This document shows positions 117 through 37,981 of a DNA stretch of 50,058 nucleotides, piece after piece (the stretch's first letter is position 1; the number at the start of each line of letters is the position of its first letter). The notes beneath the pieces are model-generated. The model did no database searches. It was given only the letters and a program-made list of their open reading frames with translations, and was not told the origin of the DNA. The translations under genes and the position numbers were made by a program. The DNA comes from a bacterium (GTDB lineage: Bacteria; Patescibacteriota; Minisyncoccia; Sungbacterales; GWA2-42-14), in contig JAUSFV010000010.1 of assembly GCA_030649305.1 (NCBI GenBank), positions 1-50,058 of the forward strand, written 5' to 3'.

Positions 117-1052
117 TTACCCATCCGTTTTTGGCTCTGCCACTTCCCCACTCCGGCGCTTCTGAATCGCCTCTTCAAGCTTCGGCACAATATCGTCAAT
201 AGAAAATCCGTACGTGTTATATCCGCCGAGCTCTGATGCTCCGTCGTTTTTCCCCGCGTGATACGTATCCGCGTCGCGATGAAAATCAGAACCCGCGGTC
301 CGAAGTATTCCGTATTTCCCCGCAAACATATTTAAAAATTCCACTTCATCCTCAGAGTAATCCGGGTGAAATGCCTCAACGCCATCCAGTCCGGCGCCAA
401 TGAGCGCTTCAAGCGTCTCCTCAATTTTTTTCGCATCACGGTCAAGGTGAATCGCGGGATGCGACCACACGGCAACCCCGCCCGCGTTATGCAAAAGCTC
501 AATCGCGTCTTTCATCGCAACATGTTCCCGCCCCACATACGCTGACTTTCCTTCCACCAAAAATTTTCTGATGACCGTGGAAATATCATACGCGTCTCCA
601 CCGAGCTTTGATTTATTTTCAGGATGCATAAGAAGGGCTTCGGCAATCGCGGGGCGCGCCACCGACCCTTCGGCAAATATACGAACTTCTTTCATAGTAA
701 TCACAAAACCGTCCCGATTAAGATTCTCAACCATTTTTTCAGCGCGCCGAACCCGGTCTTCCTGAAACAACGCGAGAGCGGAAAGAAGTGCCGGGTCGGC
801 ATCATCCATTCCGAATCCCAACAGATGAAATTCGTGATGCAAAAAATTGCACGACATTTCAATACCGGAAATCACTTTCACACCGACCTCTTCCCCTTTT
901 TTCATTGCCTCGCGCACCCCCGCAACCGAATCGTGGTCCGTAATCGCGACTGTTGTAAGCCCGAGGCGCTTTGCGCGCTCAACCAATTCAGCCGGCGGAT
1001 ATTTTCCGTCGGATTTGTTTGATTGGATTTGCAGATCAATTGGATTCATCAT
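117..1052 (-). CDS. PHP domain phosphoesterase (TrpH/YciV-like)
   Basis: Motifs AITDHD, GIEMS, HLLG, SHP, GSDFH. The N-terminal HxH motif reads QxQ (DLQIQS). Confidence 0.85.
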   Translation of the reverse strand: MMNPIDLQIQSNKSDGKYPPAELVERAKRLGLTTVAITDHDSVAGVREAMKKGEEVGVKVISGIEMSCNFLHHEFHLLGFGMDDADPALLSALALFQEDRVRRAEKMVENLNRDGFVITMKEVRIFAEGSVARPAIAEALLMHPENKSKLGGDAYDISTVIRKFLVEGKSAYVGREHVAMKDAIELLHNAGGVAVWSHPAIHLDRDAKKIEETLEALIGAGLDGVEAFHPDYSEDEVEFLNMFAGKYGILRTAGSDFHRDADTYHAGKNDGASELGGYNTYGFSIDDIVPKLEEAIQKRRSGEVAEPKTDG

Positions 1053-16930: not shown

Positions 16931-17075
16931 GCCAATTTTATTTACGAGTGAGGGGAGTAACTATACAATTGAGCACCCCGTGAGATGAGCGCTTCGCGCT
17001 CTATCTCATGGGGTAAAGGTTTGGCAACTGCGATTTTTTTGTCTAACGACTCAAAATCGCAGGCCAAGCCCCTTA
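16928..17075 (-). mobile_element. nested stop-to-start intergenic element, copy A, with 40-bp palindromic cargo at 16975-17014
   Basis: CATGCCAAT...TTGAGC[ACCCCGTGAGAT...ATCTCATGGGGT]AAAGGTTTG...CAAGCCCCTTA. 17015-17075 matches 46036-46096 at 52/61 nt. Confidence 0.8.
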
Positions 17076-19074: not shown

Positions 19075-21774
19075 CTATAACTCCGCCCACGTCTTTCCCT
19101 CATGCGCGTCCACCGGAAACGGAACCGCGCCCTCAAAGCACGATTCCATAATTTTTTTAATTTCTGTTTTATAATGTTCTGATTTTTCTTCGCGCGCCTC
19201 AAAAATAAGTTCATCATGCACCTGCAAAAGCATCCGCAAATCCCCGCGCTTAAAATCTTCGGCAAACGCGGCCCAAATCCGTATCATGGCGCGCTTCAAA
19301 ATGTCCGCCGCCGTTCCCTGAATCGGCGCGTTTACCGCCATGCGCTCGGCTTCCGCCACTTCACGAAACCCGCCGGAAAAAAGCTGGGGCAAATACCGCC
19401 GCCTGCCGAATGCCGTCTCCACATACCCCTCGATGCGGGCTTTTTCTTTTGTCTCTGCAATATAATTCGCAATGCCCGAAAAATCGCTGAAATATTCGGA
19501 AAAAAACTTTTTTGCCTGTTCAAGCGGAATACCCGCACTCTCCGCAAACGAACGCACGCCCATGCCATAGAGAATTCCGAAGTTAAGCGCTTTTGCCGCA
19601 CGGCGCATCTCGGGCGTTACCTTTTCAATCGTCGTATCATTCACTTCCGCCGCGGTAAGCGTATGAATATCCATCCCGCGCGTGAACGCGTCAATCATCT
19701 TTTTGTCTCCCGCTAAATGTGCCGCAATCCGCAATTCCAATTGCGAATAATCAAACGCAAGAAAAGAAAAACCTTTTTCCGCAACAAACGCGGCGCGAAT
19801 TTCTTTGCCGCGCAGAGTTTTCGTAGGAATATTCTGTACATTGGGGTCAGATGAAGAAAGGCGCCCCGTAACGGTTCCTGTCTGGTGGAATGTCGTATGA
19901 ATTCTCCCGCCCAAGTCAACAAGCTTCGGAAGCGCCTCAATATACGTACTCTGTAGCTTTGCAAGTTCCCGATATTCAATAAGGAACGGAATGATGGGAT
20001 GTTCTTTCTGCATACGCGAAAGCTGGTCAATGTTGGTAGAAAGGCGTCCCGTTCCGGTTTTTTTTATGCGGGCACTCTTGCCAAGGCCAAGTTTCGTAAA
20101 AAGAATTTCCGAGAGCTGTTGCGAAGAATTGATATTAAATGATTCGCCGGCGTTCTTGTATATTTTTTCTTCAAGAATGCCTATCTCTTTTTTGGTTTTT
20201 TGCGAAAGTTTTAAAAGATACCCCGTATCAATCCCAATGCCCCAACGCTCCATTGCGGCAAGAATCACAGGAAGAGGCATTTCAAATTCTTCAAATATCC
20301 GGAGAAGCTGATTTTTTTCAAGATCATCTCGAAGGCGTCGGGCAATGCGCGGGAGAAGTGCAAGCAGGTCGCCCGTGCTTATATCAGCCACATCTTTTTG
20401 TAAAAACCACGACACAAGTTTTCCAAGCGAATAATCGCGCCTTCCGGGGTCTGCGATAAACCAAGCGAGCTTGCAATCAAAAAATGTTCCCCACCCCTCC
20501 GCAAACGGAGCTAATTTCAAAAACGCCTTAAGATCGTGCGTGATAAGGTCAACGCCTTTTGTCGCTGTAAAAAAATCTTCCGCCTCGCGGGAACGCAATA
20601 ATTTTTCCGGCACAGCGAAAAATTCCGAAGATCCCTCGGGCCTAAAGCCCGACCTAGTCCGACCGCGGACGGTCTCGGATGGCTCGGCCGTGTAGGGCAG
20701 AATAAAAAACGTTTTTGACGCCTCATCAAAAAGAAACGCGAGCCGCGTGCCGCGCAAGGAAGATACAGGAAGAAGATGCCAATCTTTGCCATTCGTAATT
20801 TTCACTTCTTTTTGTTTCGGCGCCTCCGTTTCTTTTTCAAAAAGCGTCGCCGGCCCCGGCGCTGTTCGCGTCTGTTCGTTTTCTGTTCGTGGCTGTTCGT
20901 GTAAACGTTTCAGAAAGCTCGAAAAGCCAAATTTTTCAAAAATAGGTTCGAGTTTGTCTTTATGAGATTGCATCCCCCGCCATTCGCCCTCTTCAAGCGT
21001 TACGGAAACGGGAGCGTCCCGCGCAATAAGCGCAAGTTCTTTTGAAATACGCGCGTTTTCTTCCCCCTCTTCAAGTTTTTTTCGTACAGAATCGGAAAAT
21101 GAAAATGCGCCCCTTTTTTTAAGAGCTTTGTAGGTATTTTCAACAGAGCCATATTTTTGCAAAAGTTCTGTTGCAATTTTTTCGCCAATTCCTTTAACTC
21201 CGGGGATATTATCCGAGGGGTCGCCCCGGAGCCCCTTATAATCCACAAGCATCTCGGGCCCGAAGCCAAACCGTTCGCGCACGGCTTTTTCATCATATAA
21301 AATCGTATCCGAAATGCCCTTTTTTAGGGTAAACACGGACACGCGCGGCCGCACGAGCTGGAGCGCGTCCAAATCGCCCGACACAATAACAACTTCATAA
21401 TCTTTCTTTTTTGAAAAACTTTCCGCGAGCGTCCCAATAACATCATCCGCCTCATACCCTTCTTTTTGAATGACCGGAATGCCAAATGCCTCAAGAATTT
21501 CGCGCACCATGGGAATTTGTGTGATAAGTTCATCCGGCGCTTTGGGGCGATGGGCCTTGTAGCGCTCATACGCAATATGGCGGAACGTTGGGCCCGGCAA
21601 GTCAAAGGCAGCAAACACAAAATCGGGTTCTAATTCCCCGAGCATTTTCAGAAGCATAGAGGTAAAACCGTATGCCGCCTGGCTTGGTTTGCCGTCGGGA
21701 GTGCGCAAACCCGGCAGCGCATGAAAGGCGCGATGGATAAGAGAATGGGAATCAATTAAGATAATGCGCTTCAC
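19075..21774 (-). CDS. polA: DNA polymerase I
   Basis: 5'-3' exonuclease (LIDSHSL, YEADDVIG, GDPSDN), TVTGRLSS, DYSQLELR, LQVHDEL. Start placed at GTG 21774, created by the MITE end. Confidence 0.95.
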   Translation of the reverse strand: MKRIILIDSHSLIHRAFHALPGLRTPDGKPSQAAYGFTSMLLKMLGELEPDFVFAAFDLPGPTFRHIAYERYKAHRPKAPDELITQIPMVREILEAFGIPVIQKEGYEADDVIGTLAESFSKKKDYEVVIVSGDLDALQLVRPRVSVFTLKKGISDTILYDEKAVRERFGFGPEMLVDYKGLRGDPSDNIPGVKGIGEKIATELLQKYGSVENTYKALKKRGAFSFSDSVRKKLEEGEENARISKELALIARDAPVSVTLEEGEWRGMQSHKDKLEPIFEKFGFSSFLKRLHEQPRTENEQTRTAPGPATLFEKETEAPKQKEVKITNGKDWHLLPVSSLRGTRLAFLFDEASKTFFILPYTAEPSETVRGRTRSGFRPEGSSEFFAVPEKLLRSREAEDFFTATKGVDLITHDLKAFLKLAPFAEGWGTFFDCKLAWFIADPGRRDYSLGKLVSWFLQKDVADISTGDLLALLPRIARRLRDDLEKNQLLRIFEEFEMPLPVILAAMERWGIGIDTGYLLKLSQKTKKEIGILEEKIYKNAGESFNINSSQQLSEILFTKLGLGKSARIKKTGTGRLSTNIDQLSRMQKEHPIIPFLIEYRELAKLQSTYIEALPKLVDLGGRIHTTFHQTGTVTGRLSSSDPNVQNIPTKTLRGKEIRAAFVAEKGFSFLAFDYSQLELRIAAHLAGDKKMIDAFTRGMDIHTLTAAEVNDTTIEKVTPEMRRAAKALNFGILYGMGVRSFAESAGIPLEQAKKFFSEYFSDFSGIANYIAETKEKARIEGYVETAFGRRRYLPQLFSGGFREVAEAERMAVNAPIQGTAADILKRAMIRIWAAFAEDFKRGDLRMLLQVHDELIFEAREEKSEHYKTEIKKIMESCFEGAVPFPVDAHEGKTWAEL
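20633..20688. repeat. GC-rich palindromic in-frame insertion in polA
   Basis: CCCTCGGGCCTAAAGCCCGA...GTCCGACCGCGGAC...CTCGG, read as AEPSETVRGRTRSGFRPEG. Confidence 0.55.
20861..20902. repeat. in-frame CTGTTCG(C/T) ~10-mer repeat in the polA linker
   Basis: Four units encoding HEQPRTENEQTRTA. Same family as 39606-39700 and 47978-48018. Confidence 0.75.
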
Positions 21775-21872
21775 CCCGTTAGAAATCACCTTTATATGAC
21801 TGGGACCAGCCAATTTCAGATGACAAAACTTAATGCGATAAACACCCCGCAAACTAAAAATTTCTAACGGGG
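21774..21872. mobile_element. MITE-like element, CCCCGTTAGA family, copy 2 (99 bp), in the tsaE/polA junction
   Basis: TIRs CCCCGTTAGAAAT / ATTTCTAACGGGG. TTCA duplicated at 21770-21773 and 21873-21876. Confidence 0.88.
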
Positions 21873-21873
21873 T

Positions 21874-22314
21874 TCATAAAACTTTTAACTTTCGTTCGTT
21901 AGATTTTTTTCCATGATGAAAAGAAATGCGAACAATGCTTTTGGGTAATATTTTTTTAATCCTCTCCGCCCATTCAATCACAACGATACTGTGCGGGTCT
22001 TTAAAAATTTCTTTAACGCCGAGGTGTAAAAGTTCTTTCGACGACTTAATCCGATAACAATCAATATGAACAAGGTGCCGCGCTTTGCCGAATGGATACA
22101 CGTTCATCAACACGAATGTCGGACTTTTCGGAATATCTTTAATACCAAGCCCCCGTGCAAATCCCTGTGCGAACGTAGTTTTTCCCGAACCGAGATTTCC
22201 TTCAAGCGCTACGACAAACGCCCCCGTTTTGTGGGGGGTTTTTTTGATTTCCTTGGCAAGGGCGGAGGCGATGTTTTTTGTTTGAGAAGCGCTGTGGGTA
22301 GTGATTTCAATCAT
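21874..22314 (-). CDS. tsaE: tRNA t6A biosynthesis ATPase TsaE
   Basis: LEGNLGSGKTTF, SPTF, HIDCYR, IEWAE. Start at ATG 22314. Confidence 0.93.
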   Translation of the reverse strand: MIEITTHSASQTKNIASALAKEIKKTPHKTGAFVVALEGNLGSGKTTFAQGFARGLGIKDIPKSPTFVLMNVYPFGKARHLVHIDCYRIKSSKELLHLGVKEIFKDPHSIVVIEWAERIKKILPKSIVRISFHHGKKSNERKLKVL

Positions 22315-31045: not shown

Positions 31046-32218
31046 TTACGCAACCCGAAATATTTTCCGTTTCCCGACTTTTATAATATCGCCGGAAGCT
31101 ATTGCTATCTCCGCGTATGCGTCTTTCAACACTTGTTGGTTAATTTCAACGGCTCCCGGTATGATGAGGCGCCTTGCTTCACTCTTAGATAACGCAAACC
31201 CAACCTCAAGAAGAAGCTCGGGGAGTGTATATGTTTTTTTCTTTAAACGGCGCGAAGGAATATTTGAAAGATCTTTTTTAGAAAAAAGCTTTACAAAATT
31301 TTCGCAGGCTCGGCGCGCTTTTTCTTTTCCGTGATACAGGCCCGCAACGCGCTCTGCCAATTCAAGCTTCAAATCCCGTGGATTCTTACTGTCCTTGGGG
31401 TCCCACCGAGGAAGTTCATCAACGGGGACAAAAGCGGCAAGCTCTGCGTAATGGAATATAAGAGAATCAGGAATAGACATAATTTTTCCGACCATCTCGT
31501 CAGCGCTGTCGGTAAGAGCAATATAATTCCCGAGTGACTTTGACATTTTGTGCTTCCCGTCAAGTCCGATAAGGAGCGGGAGGAGCACCAAATCCTGCTC
31601 CGGATACCCTATCTTTTTTTGCAATTCGCGCCCCGCAAGCAAGTTTAATTTCTGATCCATGCCGCCAAGCTCAACATCGGCGCGCACCGCAACCGAATCG
31701 TATGCCTGCATGATCTGATACAGGGTTTCATGATGTGCCACCTCTTCTCCTTGTTCCAGGCGCCGCTTAAAATCCTCGCGGTCCAAAATGCGGTTCGTGG
31801 AAAAATTTCCGACAACACGAAGAAACTCGGCAAGTTTCATTTTGGAAAACCATTCGCTGTTGTAATGAATTTCCGCCTTTTTCAAATCAATAATCCGGCC
31901 TACTTGTTCAAAGTAGGTTTTGGCGTTTTTTTTGATTTCTGCATCCAAAAGAGGCGGACGCGCTTTTGTTTTGCCGGAGGGGTCACCGATTGCCGCGGTG
32001 TAGTCGCCGATAATAAAAACCGCCGTATGCCCTGCGTCCTGAAATTCACAAAGTTTTCTCAGGACAAGCGCGTGCCCCAAATGCAAATCGGGCGCCGTCG
32101 GATCCGCCCCTAATTTCACCCGAAGTTTTCGACCCGAGGAAAATTTCTTTTCAAGCGAAACCTGATCAATAATTTCTTCGGCAAGCGAAAAAATATCGCC
32201 GTAAAGATTCTTTTTCAC
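31046..32218 (-). CDS. tyrS: tyrosine--tRNA ligase
   Basis: GADPTAPDLHLGH (HIGH), YQIMQAYD, KMSKS, C-terminal S4 domain. The G of its GTG start belongs to the MITE. Confidence 0.96.
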   Translation of the reverse strand: MKKNLYGDIFSLAEEIIDQVSLEKKFSSGRKLRVKLGADPTAPDLHLGHALVLRKLCEFQDAGHTAVFIIGDYTAAIGDPSGKTKARPPLLDAEIKKNAKTYFEQVGRIIDLKKAEIHYNSEWFSKMKLAEFLRVVGNFSTNRILDREDFKRRLEQGEEVAHHETLYQIMQAYDSVAVRADVELGGMDQKLNLLAGRELQKKIGYPEQDLVLLPLLIGLDGKHKMSKSLGNYIALTDSADEMVGKIMSIPDSLIFHYAELAAFVPVDELPRWDPKDSKNPRDLKLELAERVAGLYHGKEKARRACENFVKLFSKKDLSNIPSRRLKKKTYTLPELLLEVGFALSKSEARRLIIPGAVEINQQVLKDAYAEIAIASGDIIKVGKRKIFRVA

Positions 32219-32343
32219 CCCGTTAGAAGTCTGCCGTTATATGGCCAACAACCAATTTCAGACAGACACGACAATAGATATAACCCCGCTTGTTTGATGT
32301 GGAAAAAATTACTAATTTTTTCCACCAAAGACTTCTAACGGGG
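32218..32343. mobile_element. MITE-like element, CCCCGTTAGA family, copy 3 (126 bp), in the tyrS start codon
   Basis: TIRs CCCCGTTAGAAGTCT / AGACTTCTAACGGGG. TTCA at 32214-32217 and 32344-32347. Extra internal hairpin TGGAAAAAATT-ACT-AATTTTTTCCA. Confidence 0.88.
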
Positions 32344-32402
32344 TTCATACTTCTTCATCATACGGCATTTCGGGTGAATTTGCAAAACATAGAAAATATG
32401 CT

Positions 32403-34901
32403 ATGTTTGTATTACGCATGAGACCAAAAAAGAAAAAACGAACAATCACAAAAAAACTCGTCATCTTTGTTGGCGGGCTTTTTTTGGTTTGCCTTACGTT
32501 CCTGGCCGCCGCGACCGCCTTTTTTTTGAAAGACCTTCCGCGGCCGGAAACAATTACCAAGCGCGCGCTCACCGAATCAACGAAAATATACGACCGGACC
32601 GGAAAAATTCTCCTCTACGAAGTATATAAAGAAGAAAAGAGAACCCAGATAGCGCTTGATATGATTCCGCTTCCAGCCCAGCAGGCGCTCATTGCCATTG
32701 AGGATGCGAATTTCTACAACCATTTCGGCCTTGATTGGCGGGGGGTTGCCCGCGCGGTTATTGAAAACTTCACCCCCTTCGGGCCCGGATTTTTCCGGGG
32801 TAGCGGCGGCTCTACCATCACCCAGCAACTTGTCAAAAATTCGCTCGTCGGCACGAAGCGGACGTACGCCAGAAAACTGAAGGAGGCAATTCTTGCTATT
32901 CTTCTTGAGCGCCAATATTCAAAAAGCCAAATTCTTGAGTGGTACCTGAATCAAATTCCGTTTGGTTCAAACGCCTACGGCATTGAATCTGCCGCCCAAA
33001 CATTTTTCGGAAAAAACGCGGAGTCGCTCACGATAAGCGAATCTGCCCTCCTTGCAGCCCTTCCGAAGGCTCCCACCTACTATTCCCCCTACGGCCAGCA
33101 CAAAGACGAATTATTAAACCGAAAAAATCTTATTCTGAATCGGATGCAAGAACTCGGATTTCTCTCGCCCGATGAGATAGCGAATACGAAAAAAGAAGTG
33201 CCGGTGTTTCTCCCCCCGCGAAAAGATATTATCGCCCCGCACTTCGTCATGATGGTGCGTGAGGAATTAGCACGGCGCTTCGGAGAAGAAGAGGTGGAGC
33301 GCGGAGGATTAAACGTCACAACGACGCTTGATGTAACGCTGCAAACGGAAGCTGAAAAAATCATCGGGGAAGGAGCAGAGTACAACACCAAAACATTCAA
33401 CGCGACGAACGCGGGGCTTATCGCGATTGACCCCGTCAATGGAAATATTTTAGCGCTCGTCGGCTCAAAAAACTATTTTGACGTGGCGGCCGAAGGAAAT
33501 TTTAACGTCACGACCGCCTTTCGCCAGCCGGGTTCAGCATTCAAACCATTTGTCTATGCAACCGCCTTCAAAAAGGGCTATACGCCCGATACGGTCGTCT
33601 TTGATACCGAAACGGAGTTTAACCCCCTTTGCAATCCGGACGGCACGCCAGGGCCCCTCATACAAGACCCGAAAGATTGCTACAAGCCCCAAAACTACGA
33701 TGGATCTTTCCGCGGACCGGTAACGCTCCGGAGAGCCCTTGCGCAGTCGCTGAATGTCCCCGCCGTAAAAGTTCTCTACCTTGCCGGGGTTCAGGATTCA
33801 GTCGCAACTGCGCGAGATTTGGGAATTACAACACTCGGGGACGGCTCGCGCTTCGGCCTCTCGCTGGTGCTTGGGGGAGCAGAAGTAAAACTCCTTGAAA
33901 TGACAAGTGCTTTTGGCGTGTTCGCGCGCGAGGGTGTGCGTGTAGCTCCAACTCCGATACTTCGCATTGAACACCAAGGCAGGCCTTTGTGGGAATTCCA
34001 TCCGGAGCCGCGCCCCGTTCTTGATACAAATATCGCGCGTCTTATCAACGATGTGCTCTCGGACAATGCGGCGCGTATTGGCGTGTTTCATCCCAATTCA
34101 TCGCTCGCATTTCAAAACCGGGACGTTGCCGCAAAAACAGGAACTACACAGGAATTCCGCGACGCATGGACCGTGGGGTATGTCCCGTCGCTTGCGGTGG
34201 GCGTATGGGTCGGGAATAATGACAACACACCGATTCAAGAAAAGGGTGGCGGCATTACCACGGCAGCCCCTCTGTGGCGCCGCTTTATGGATGTTGCCCT
34301 CGCGAGTGTGCCGCCCGAAGCATTTACGGCTCCCGAAATTCCCCATCCCGAAAAAGCAATTCTGCGCGGGGTGTGGCGCGGAGAAGAAATTGTGAAACTT
34401 GACCGGGTATCAGGAAAGCGCGCAACTGATGCAACGCCGCCAGATTTCATCGAGGAACACGCCTACGGCGAACCGCACACGATTCTTTGGTGGTTGAATC
34501 CAAAAGACCCGGCAGGCCCCAAACCAGAATACCCCGAGGAGGACCCGCAATATAAAAACTGGAACGCCTCATTTAGAAAATGGCTTTTGCAAAGCGGATT
34601 TGTACCAATTCCCGTAACCGCAATTCCCGAGGCGTATGATGACGCACACACCGCAGAAAAAAGTCCGAAAATAGAAGTCGTTTCGTTCACCGAAGAAAAA
34701 ATAATTACCAGAATCTCAGGATTTTTTCCCTTAAAAGAGGTTATATTTTTTATAGATGACGCACCGTATAAAACGATCGTCTCGCCCGCGGAAGGACAAA
34801 TAGAGTTTTTGTTCCCCGCGCTTATCAAAGAAGAGCACACGTTTCGCATCAAAACATACGACGCGGTGGGCAATAGCGGCGAGTGGGAGAGTGGATTGTA
34901 A
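32403..34901 (+). CDS. class A penicillin-binding protein (PBP1A family)
   Basis: TM anchor, transglycosylase (EDANF, GGSTITQQL, RKLKE), transpeptidase SAFK, SLN, KTG. Start may be ATG 32418. Confidence 0.93.
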   Translation: MFVLRMRPKKKKRTITKKLVIFVGGLFLVCLTFLAAATAFFLKDLPRPETITKRALTESTKIYDRTGKILLYEVYKEEKRTQIALDMIPLPAQQALIAIEDANFYNHFGLDWRGVARAVIENFTPFGPGFFRGSGGSTITQQLVKNSLVGTKRTYARKLKEAILAILLERQYSKSQILEWYLNQIPFGSNAYGIESAAQTFFGKNAESLTISESALLAALPKAPTYYSPYGQHKDELLNRKNLILNRMQELGFLSPDEIANTKKEVPVFLPPRKDIIAPHFVMMVREELARRFGEEEVERGGLNVTTTLDVTLQTEAEKIIGEGAEYNTKTFNATNAGLIAIDPVNGNILALVGSKNYFDVAAEGNFNVTTAFRQPGSAFKPFVYATAFKKGYTPDTVVFDTETEFNPLCNPDGTPGPLIQDPKDCYKPQNYDGSFRGPVTLRRALAQSLNVPAVKVLYLAGVQDSVATARDLGITTLGDGSRFGLSLVLGGAEVKLLEMTSAFGVFAREGVRVAPTPILRIEHQGRPLWEFHPEPRPVLDTNIARLINDVLSDNAARIGVFHPNSSLAFQNRDVAAKTGTTQEFRDAWTVGYVPSLAVGVWVGNNDNTPIQEKGGGITTAAPLWRRFMDVALASVPPEAFTAPEIPHPEKAILRGVWRGEEIVKLDRVSGKRATDATPPDFIEEHAYGEPHTILWWLNPKDPAGPKPEYPEEDPQYKNWNASFRKWLLQSGFVPIPVTAIPEAYDDAHTAEKSPKIEVVSFTEEKIITRISGFFPLKEVIFFIDDAPYKTIVSPAEGQIEFLFPALIKEEHTFRIKTYDAVGNSGEWESGL

Positions 34902-37874: not shown

Positions 37875-37981
37875 CCCCGTTAGAAGTTTAGAACTCCTCG
37901 TCTTAAGAACAATAAAGAGGCAGTTCGGTCGTATTGGATAGATTCTGGATACGTTTATCGTGCGTTTGACTTCTAACGGGG
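37875..37981. mobile_element. MITE-like element, CCCCGTTAGA family, copy 4 (107 bp), between dnaA and rpmH
   Basis: TIRs CCCCGTTAGAAGT / ACTTCTAACGGGG. Flanks TCAG / TCAA (imperfect duplication). Interior differs from copies 1-3. Confidence 0.8.

Follow-up and report, generated by a model that had tools for sequence, protein, structure and literature searches.

A gene-less element on the start codon of tyrS in a Sungbacterales genome, probably from a mobile family with GIY-YIG nuclease-carrying members

The DNA analysed here, a 50,058-nucleotide (nt) stretch of contig JAUSFV010000010.1 in assembly GCA_030649305.1 (in the following, the window), is part of a 1.02-Mb genome of the order Sungbacterales, which consists of 54 contigs and stems from groundwater metagenomes. 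On its minus strand, a 126-base-pair (bp) element is inserted into the target A|TGAA overlapping the start codon of tyrS, with duplication of the TGAA. The element is probably a gene-less copy of a small mobile family, with ends of the form YCCCGTTAGA and with full-length members carrying a GIY-YIG nuclease gene, that landed on the tyrS start and rebuilt it as GTG. A wider proposal, in which selfish DNA found throughout the lineage aims at start codons, borrows initiation signals and rebuilds its own ATGAA target, the hairpin thus formed being perhaps a control point, is offered more tentatively, as one that is almost, but not quite, as readily believed as doubted.

Along the minus strand, on which all the features of this locus lie, the 5′ end of tyrS is composed of GAAGAAGT, ATG, AA, the 126-bp element, TGAA and AAAGAAT, in this order. 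The displaced original ATG (32346-32348), for which an ATG is found at the matching place in the related contig L056 described below, overlaps the left copy of the TGAA target duplication (32344-32347). It is followed by the element itself (32218-32343), as delimited by its sequence, an end-motif search and its fold, and by the right TGAA copy (32214-32217), both TGAA copies being read directly in the sequence. Element and 4-bp duplication add up to an insertion of 130 nt. The left terminal inverted repeat, CCCCGTTAGAAGTCT (32329-32343), and the right one, AGACTTCTAACGGGG (32218-32232), are perfect 15-bp reverse complements at the two ends, and RNA folding predicts an internal 12-bp hairpin of the GGUGGAAAAAAU/AUUUUUUCCAC type (32299-32325). 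The final G of the right repeat is the first base of the new GTG start (32216-32218), which is completed by the TG of the right TGAA copy. With a purine as the last base of the element and TG at the head of the duplicate, the far junction restores a start codon by itself, GTG in this case. By entering A|TGAA and duplicating TGAA, the element has stranded the old ATG 130 nt upstream of a rebuilt GTG.

The displaced ATG now opens a 41-codon upstream open reading frame (uORF; 32223-32348, stop included), which is the sole frame of the element. It reads the left repeat as N-P-V-R-S, encodes the peptide MNPVRSLWWKK...GHITADF and stops at a TAA (32225-32223) within the right repeat, after which come CGGG and then the GTG. 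In these respects, i.e. the GTG-AAA-AAG-AAT start, the 41-codon frame opened by the ATG at 32348 and its TAA 4 nt before the GTG, a preliminary description of this DNA is borne out by the sequence itself. A 'GYIY' stretch in the uORF peptide was considered as a relic of a GIY motif, which could not be shown beyond chance. The end motif has eight matches in the window at no more than two mismatches, against 0.09 expected, and none of 100 shuffles reached eight; therefore, the repeat end is no chance palindrome. When the element was searched against Rfam, the best hit was a plant microRNA model with E = 0.53, clearly due to chance. Being short and gene-less, with inverted ends, a target duplication and dispersed copies, the segment fits the structural definition of MITEs (miniature inverted-repeat transposable elements).

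The tyrS coding sequence (31046-32218, 390 residues), assigned by frame translation, TyrS match and Pfam, is the single TyrS match in the genome. Its frame is open for only six codons upstream of the GTG (396 residues open and 390 matched), which makes the GTG the first usable start. The next visible in-frame start is the V of '...SGRKLRVKLGAD...', the use of which would delete a conserved N-terminal stretch; in 19 TyrS orthologues from relatives, of which several begin with MKK..., 13-21 residues precede that conserved block, and the Pfam domain tRNA-synt_1b (the class-I synthetase domain) begins at residue 29 of TyrS. As far as the sequence allows one to judge, TyrS can begin only at the junction GTG.

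The preliminary description had also reconstructed an empty site with an ATG at the tyrS start, and a comparison of the tyrS 5′ region among relatives agrees with it. A metagenome scan provided contig L056, in which the TyrS protein is 83% identical, the divergent penicillin-binding-protein neighbour is the same and the element is absent; there, tyrS starts with ATG ATG AAG AAA AAT immediately after GAAGAGT, i.e. with an ATG at the reconstructed position. A further 19 orthologue loci, more distantly related (42-56% identity), are too diverged for an empty site to be read at the DNA level; none of them has the end motif close to the 5′ end of tyrS. Upstream of the insertion, a native promoter-like site (32357-32385) is formed by TTGCAA (32385-32380), a 17-nt spacer and TATGAT (32362-32357), and is the only sigma-70-type match on the minus strand between 32100 and 32500. 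Both hexamers are conserved in L056 though the spacer differs, and TATGAT ends 8 nt before the displaced ATG in the window and 7 nt before the ATG in L056. These features suggest that tyrS was originally leaderless or near-leaderless, in which case the transcript made after the insertion would begin at the displaced AUG.

In the genome as a whole, 34 inward-facing pairs of the end motif, 94-165 bp long, are found, with identical flanking 4-mers (TGAA, TTGA, TTTA, TAAA, TATG or TGGA) in 21 of them. Fifteen pairs are gene-start copies, namely 12 clean ones and three degenerate ones with decayed left flanks. Eleven copies have exactly the arrangement ATGAA-element-TGAA, with junction GTG codons that open frames of 93-899 codons; the twelfth clean copy has ends TCCC...GGGA and flanks ATGGA/TGGA, and an ATG is rebuilt at its junction. 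Host genes are varied (tyrS, polA, adk, grpE, pilM-like, histidine kinase and others). Pfam domains start at residues 1-18 of the junction-started proteins (residue 4 for the polA exonuclease, 11 for adenylate kinase, 1 for DUF427 and 6 for CBS), which indicates that the junction starts are true N-termini. Eleven of the 12 TGAA-flanked copies lie on ATGAA gene starts, where 9% would be expected from the 124 ATGAA gene starts and the 1255 intergenic TGAA sites with every within-gene insertion treated as lethal (P = 3e-11; P = 2.5e-8 with twice as many start sites). The interiors of the copies are about 70-90% alike, and the six copies whose interiors are informatively similar to that of the tyrS copy all have the same orientation relative to their gene. 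In crude gene calls, 26 genes begin with GTGAA, which should include most of the 13 GTGAA element junctions.

The sister case in the window lies on the start of polA (21772-21877, minus strand; 899 residues, GTG at 21774), where a 99-bp element (21872-21774) is set between ATGAA and TGAA. The displaced-ATG uORF has only seven codons in this case, and the stop codon of the upstream gene is 2 nt from the element, which points to a former operon junction. It had been argued earlier that recurrence at two core genes is no coincidence; the argument stands, while the number of cases does not, there being 15 in this genome. Two further copies occur in the window. The one at 1095-1195, of the same subfamily, is flanked by TGAA on both sides, with GTGAA at its left junction and a junction frame of only 13 codons; it faces a gene at 117-1052 (minus strand), the called start of which is 43 nt away, and is the sole TGAA-flanked copy off gene starts. 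The other (37875-37981, 107 bp) has a different interior and imperfect flanks, TCAG/TCAA, and lies between divergent genes.

The same behaviour is seen across the order. In 62 genomes, copies were counted that had 60-140 nt between YCCCGTTAGA and TCTAACGGGR ends and TGAN on both sides. The base preceding the left TGAN was A in 119 (31 genomes), G in 14, T in one and C in four, so that ATG, GTG or TTG stands at the left junction in 134 of 138 copies; reversed control patterns gave no match in the 62 genomes. The end pair was found in 15 of 30 relatives, again with no match to the reversed control pattern. Among 21 copies in 20 regions of 13 genomes, picked by hand from the list and not at random, 16 have a junction frame that runs for at least 71 codons or is open to the end of the fetched DNA. 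With 11 of 12 copies here and 134 of 138 across the order at starts, the recurrence is not a coincidence; as read from these genome sequences, the insertions at about 15 gene starts here and at more than 100 in related genomes are the behaviour of a family. At loci L175 and L176, both of the relative G011, elements are lined up in tandem, by twos or threes and in head-to-tail order. Since a ...GGGA end beside TGAA recreates ATGAA, each insertion rebuilds the target for the next.

Full-length members of the family measure about 276-290 bp and contain a single gene, for a GIY-YIG nuclease of about 90 residues. Translation from every repeat end in the frame of the displaced ATG gave, for this genome, one long frame of the right kind (C41:6588-6872), the 94-residue product of which (P0001) matches the Pfam GIY-YIG family PF01541 (E = 2.8e-15, residues 9-75) and has the UPF0213 protein 1zg2 as its only relative by sequence in the PDB (E = 8e-7). 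This element, ATGAG-TCCCGTTAGAG...CTCTAACGGGA-TGAG, lies on the start of a 184-codon grpE-like gene, so labelled from reading the sequence without a family search. The repeats themselves encode the first (SPVR) and last (SLTG) residues of the nuclease, and its TGA stop is supplied by the duplicated target and overlaps the rebuilt ATG. Assignment of the nuclease to the group I intron endonucleases of TIGR01453 was rejected (28.9 bits, below the cut-off of 56.05).

Homologues of the nuclease occur in 46 of the 62 genomes, often in several copies, and at 17 of the 30 best loci a co-directional frame of at least 60 codons starts between -6 and +12 nt of the nuclease stop; in 10 of those 17, the host start lies one base before the nuclease TGA. 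Nuclease frames end in one of two ways, i.e. in a TGA overlapping the rebuilt start (RTGA) or at a far-repeat TAA 4 nt before the start. The second layout is that of tyrS: at locus L151, the nuclease ends with TAA-CGGG-ATG before a 262-codon host frame, and in the relative L148 a 285-bp nuclease element shares 12 of 12 terminal bases with the tyrS copy, the nuclease stopping at the far-repeat TAA. Three more mini GIY-YIG genes of this genome (C16:19583-19780, C47:7681-7917 and C37:11112-11333) have inverted ends of their own, 18-25 bp long and of the types CCCCCACACC..., CCCCATGAGAT... and CCCCCTCACTCG..., respectively; the C16 copy lies within a host frame, 17 codons from its start, and is flanked by duplicated TTTA. 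The end types of the four nuclease paralogues are also dispersed as inward-facing pairs (31, 15, 9 and 8), and such paralogue-specific ends fit the recognition by one nuclease of one kind of end, a notion drawn from sequence comparison.

How ribosomes reach the rebuilt GTG may be considered in the light of the predicted RNA structure. For the RNA that extends from the displaced AUG into tyrS, a folding energy of -56.9 kcal/mol is predicted, against -36.4 +/- 4.1 for shuffled sequences (z = -4.95), and the predicted closing helix of 16 bp comprises the 15-bp repeats and, as its sixteenth pair, an A and a U from the TGAA copies. At the predicted foot of this helix, the old initiation region and the new start would lie on either side, with the G and U of the GUG paired. 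Hairpins that match the internal 12-bp one, with different stem letters, are seen in the sister copies C42, C50:23087 and C51:24023 and in relatives, as judged by eye. Another stem, GTCTGTC...GACAGAC, which was spotted visually and in which sister copies seem to carry compensating changes, lies outside the minimum-energy fold, and no claim is made for it. That a helix can bridge upstream signals to a start codon is known in principle from genes of phage T4. The preliminary description had likewise named, as one possibility, a hairpin of the inverted repeats by which the two ends could be joined. The general route to the GTG in gene-less copies is most likely, at modest confidence, one in which ribosomes initiate directly at the helix foot, the native upstream signals being brought near by the 16-bp closing helix according to the fold model. 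Direct initiation is preferred because there are sister copies, and a sister strain, without the uORF.

A different route had also been proposed in the preliminary description, namely that ribosomes start at the displaced ATG, translate the 41-codon uORF, stop at its TAA and reinitiate at the GTG, the uORF thereby sustaining tyrS. Such a route is possible, though it must be regarded as doubtful. The promoter-like site 8 nt before the displaced ATG would place the 5′ end of the transcript at or next to that AUG; the frame is open; its 4-nt gap between stop and start is that of the nuclease-carrying locus L151; and 17 of 30 nuclease genes end beside a host start. Translational coupling is established for stop and start codons that overlap or adjoin each other (PMC6728339). 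However, among the 15 gene-start copies of this genome, only the tyrS frame ends within 30 nt of the new start (at -4), the displaced-ATG frames of the other 14 ending 31-98 nt before it, and among the sampled relatives the uORF ends within 4 nt of the new start in only three of 21 copies. For an element whose length is a multiple of three, the uORF is open in 7.8% of 20000 shuffles of the interior, which makes one open case among six multiple-of-three copies unremarkable. Furthermore, in a near-identical contig from a second groundwater run, two of 1001 nt (31800-32800) are not those of the window, namely 32346 and 32026: the former difference replaces the G of the displaced ATG, leaving ATT, while the GTG and the element are unchanged, so that the strain concerned cannot use the uORF as proposed.

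The reinitiation claim, therefore, survives in part. The stop-4 nt-start geometry holds as a piece of family architecture; as the working route at tyrS it is not supported, in view of the one copy in 15, the three in 21, the 7.8% and the ATT strain. Reinitiation may contribute in the strain of the window but is dispensable, and the view of the uORF as what keeps tyrS expressed is probably wrong. From the copies compared, the stop placed 4 nt before the start appears as an inherited family layout that is not maintained in gene-less copies. In full-length elements, the host gene would be fed by termination-reinitiation coupling from the nuclease frame; the tyrS uORF would be a frame-preserved echo of this design, which may add some ribosomes in this strain.

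The excess of copies at start codons could come from targeting, from preferential survival or from both. In its pure form, the survival explanation holds that copies land on any TGAN, that the harmless intergenic ones are quickly purged from a small genome prone to deletions and that those on essential starts persist, as their loss needs exact excision. Subfamilies with TTGA or TTTA duplications do occur between genes or in frame within genes, the copies are diverged (interiors about 70-90% alike), and a start arises automatically wherever the last base of an element is A, G or T and the duplicate begins with TG. Against it speak the extreme skew (11 of 12 here and 134 of 138 across the order), the like placement of nuclease-carrying, presumably young, members, and the tandem arrays on rebuilt ATGAA (L175 and L176), which indicate re-targeting of that sequence. 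On balance, survival as the source of the excess is considered unlikely, and somewhat less credible than a uORF that sustains tyrS.

More improbable is an outward promoter carried by the element, from which tyrS would be transcribed with a leader of about 10 nt, without the left repeat and, hence, without the hairpin. A TATATAA-type box is kept about 17 nt before the junction in the gene-proximal part of the subfamily, the six copies with informative interiors all face their gene, and the copy at C29:12343 scores 10/12 with CTGTCA-17-TATAAT. This is, however, the only internal match among four scanned copies, none being found in the tyrS, polA and C46 copies; start-codon copies in other genomes have mutually unrelated interiors with no common box; and the predicted leader has no Shine-Dalgarno sequence at the spacing usual for the genome (peak at -14 to -9), no Shine-Dalgarno-like word being present at -14 to -9 in the right repeat at tyrS. 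With a match in only one of four scanned copies, the element-borne promoter was not adopted.

Removal of the element from the RNA, either by RNase III cleavage in the 16-bp helix or by an excision and rejoining that restores the AUG, could draw on the long and perfect closing helix, on the same repeat ends enclosing tRNA genes in relatives and on the rRNA genes of the Candidate Phyla Radiation (CPR), in which GIY-YIG-encoding insertions are reported by PMC11270868, a paper that also states that insertions of rRNA genes are removed from their transcripts, but is very unlikely judging from the 110-bp subfamily, two copies of which lie in frame and free of stops in long frames and all six of which keep their length, adding 114 nt with the duplication (38 codons), as expected if they are retained and translated.

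The copies just mentioned, with an interior of the ...GGCGAAGCCGACTTACG... type, are found at C25:19386-19495 and C25:38804-38913, in an ATP-synthase-gamma-like frame (so named by sequence reading) and in the gene of a 777-residue protein.

Several points weigh against the preferred reading of a mobile family whose gene-less copies are initiated directly. Neither a transposition event nor an empty allele is seen in this population: the contigs of two runs carry the element, and no contig joins the two tyrS flanks without it, the joints seen being other, shorter copies that belong to different places or organisms. A nuclease gene with the exact CCCCGTTAGAAG ends was not found in this genome, the nearest having TCCCGTTAGAG ends, and an attempt to derive the tyrS copy from L148 by deletion of the nuclease gene failed, the two aligning in blastn only over their 12-nt ends. 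That a lone GIY-YIG nuclease moves DNA with 4-bp duplications is itself a putative role; no search of the genome for DDE or tyrosine transposase families was made, and their absence is not claimed. The predicted 16-bp helix would pair the G and U of the very GUG that is to be initiated. A long junction frame is missing from five of the 21 sampled copies, of which three stand upstream in tandem arrays and two have frames of only 4 and 20 codons. Finally, the gene calls are crude (longest frames of at least 70 codons), and the order-wide figures are plain counts from related genomes that are not independent samples.

Some features of the family are shared with known systems. Bacterial MITEs such as the Correia elements of Neisseria, RUP, BOX and ERIC, reviewed in PMC3184786, are, like the tyrS element, short, gene-less and present in multiple copies, end in terminal inverted repeats and duplicate a short target; they form RNA hairpins, are often found at the 5′ ends of genes and can alter expression, and residence on start codons is not described for them in the portion of the review at hand. 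By contrast, members of the tyrS family lie on the start codon itself, which is rebuilt from the last base of the element, and their gene-carrying partner encodes a GIY-YIG nuclease of about 90 residues and no DDE transposase. The REP2 repeats of Neisseria and the IR repeats of Borrelia, according to the same portion of PMC3184786, come closer in being dispersed immediately upstream of many genes and in supplying an initiation codon. REP2, however, has no terminal inverted repeats and brings its own promoter, ribosome-binding site and ATG (PMC3184786), whereas in the tyrS family it is the junction that creates the start, and only one of four scanned copies has a promoter match, the tyrS copy having none.

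The closest published system found, among the sources as available, is that of the Ssn nucleases (Chenal et al. 2025, PMC11893778), the genes of which are flanked by NTS/SRM hairpin repeats. Like the C41 element, it consists of a small stand-alone GIY-YIG gene flanked by its own palindromic, dispersed repeat, and the repeat-gene-repeat layout has been likened by its authors to an insertion sequence. The likeness is one of layout and does not imply placement in the Ssn clade (CDD cd10448), nor the site-specific cutting of single-stranded DNA close to the repeat that characterizes the Ssn/NTS system. The Ssn repeats are hairpins of about 30 bp, as opposed to the element-long inverted ends with 4-bp duplications of the tyrS family; the text of PMC11893778 mentions neither start codons nor Patescibacteria, and the part of it consulted does not report 4-bp duplications, start-codon placement or host stop/start overlap.

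The comparison extends to repeats and nucleases within genes. Rickettsia palindromic elements are palindromic mobile repeats tolerated inside essential genes. They resemble the 110-bp subfamily, which is in frame in two long frames, and differ from the tyrS copy, which is not translated into TyrS and splits the start codon. GIY-YIG homing endonuclease genes, such as I-TevI and the Seg genes of T4, are selfish nuclease genes, the products of which have a DNA-binding domain and one cognate site. While homing endonucleases are thus bound to one site in one gene, C41-type nucleases are found on many unrelated genes, with inverted ends and duplications, and the C41 nuclease (94 residues, Pfam GIY-YIG at residues 9-75) is reduced to the catalytic domain. 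In-frame repeat insertions are covered by PMC3184786, in the part available. For CPR rRNA genes, PMC11270868 describes insertions that encode GIY-YIG proteins and are unlike both group I and group II introns; they may belong to the same family, settled at a different host site. In the literature searched, supplementary files being outside its scope, no description was found, for CPR bacteria, of elements that reside on start codons or of inverted-ended GIY-YIG elements; the start-codon-resident family of these organisms is, apparently, undescribed.

Other repeats of these genomes may be mentioned here. In relatives, tRNA genes for Val-UAC and Pro-UGG are directly enclosed by the same repeat ends (L045 1501-1605 and L052 1501-1605), and in this genome those for Pro-UGG and Pro-CGG (C33:14498-14584 and C24:6435-6521) are enclosed with one end decayed or missing. 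Half-tRNA-like pieces lie beside the enclosed genes, and these loci may be cargo-carrying elements or tRNA-gene insertions. In contig L057 (TyrS 64% identical), a different palindrome-ended element (about 467-600), with ends of the type CCCCCACACTTAA..., stops 6 nt before the tyrS ATG; here, the same end type flanks tRNA-Arg and tRNA-Ile and bounds the GIY-YIG gene C16:19583-19780. Perfect or near-perfect palindromes of 30-41 bp, with the related ends CCCCGTGAGAT...ATCTCAYGGGG and CCCCGTTAGAT...ATCTAACGGGG, are present at position 16976 of the window and in many other contigs; many are bordered by ATTGAGCA and TAAAGGTTT, which are conserved, and in some cases one palindrome lies within another. 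With introns enabled, ARAGORN reports a tRNA-Met with a 246-nt insert (C3:29264-29582) and a tRNA-Leu with a 265-nt insert (C44:23393-23755), both in the anticodon loop.

The starts of essential single-copy genes (tyrS, polA, adk, grpE) are the least expected refuge for mobile DNA, yet they are preferred in this order, the members of which are ultra-small. If the placement is aimed, this would be a new strategy for a mobile element, which would parasitize translation initiation and repay the host by coupling, and it would provide a role for the many orphan mini GIY-YIG genes of these genomes. On the practical side, element junctions will lead gene callers to wrongly placed starts or to unusual GTG starts. 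If the wider proposal is true, the full-length form would set a nuclease gene between the initiation signals of the host and its coding sequence, returning the ribosome through the stop/start arrangement, while, owing to gene-less derivatives, about 1% of the genes of these tiny genomes, some of them essential, would begin at the base of a long hairpin. The rebuilt starts would offer a natural test bed for ribosome initiation beside a stable helix, as modelled here, and the hairpin found at them may act as a shared point of translational control.

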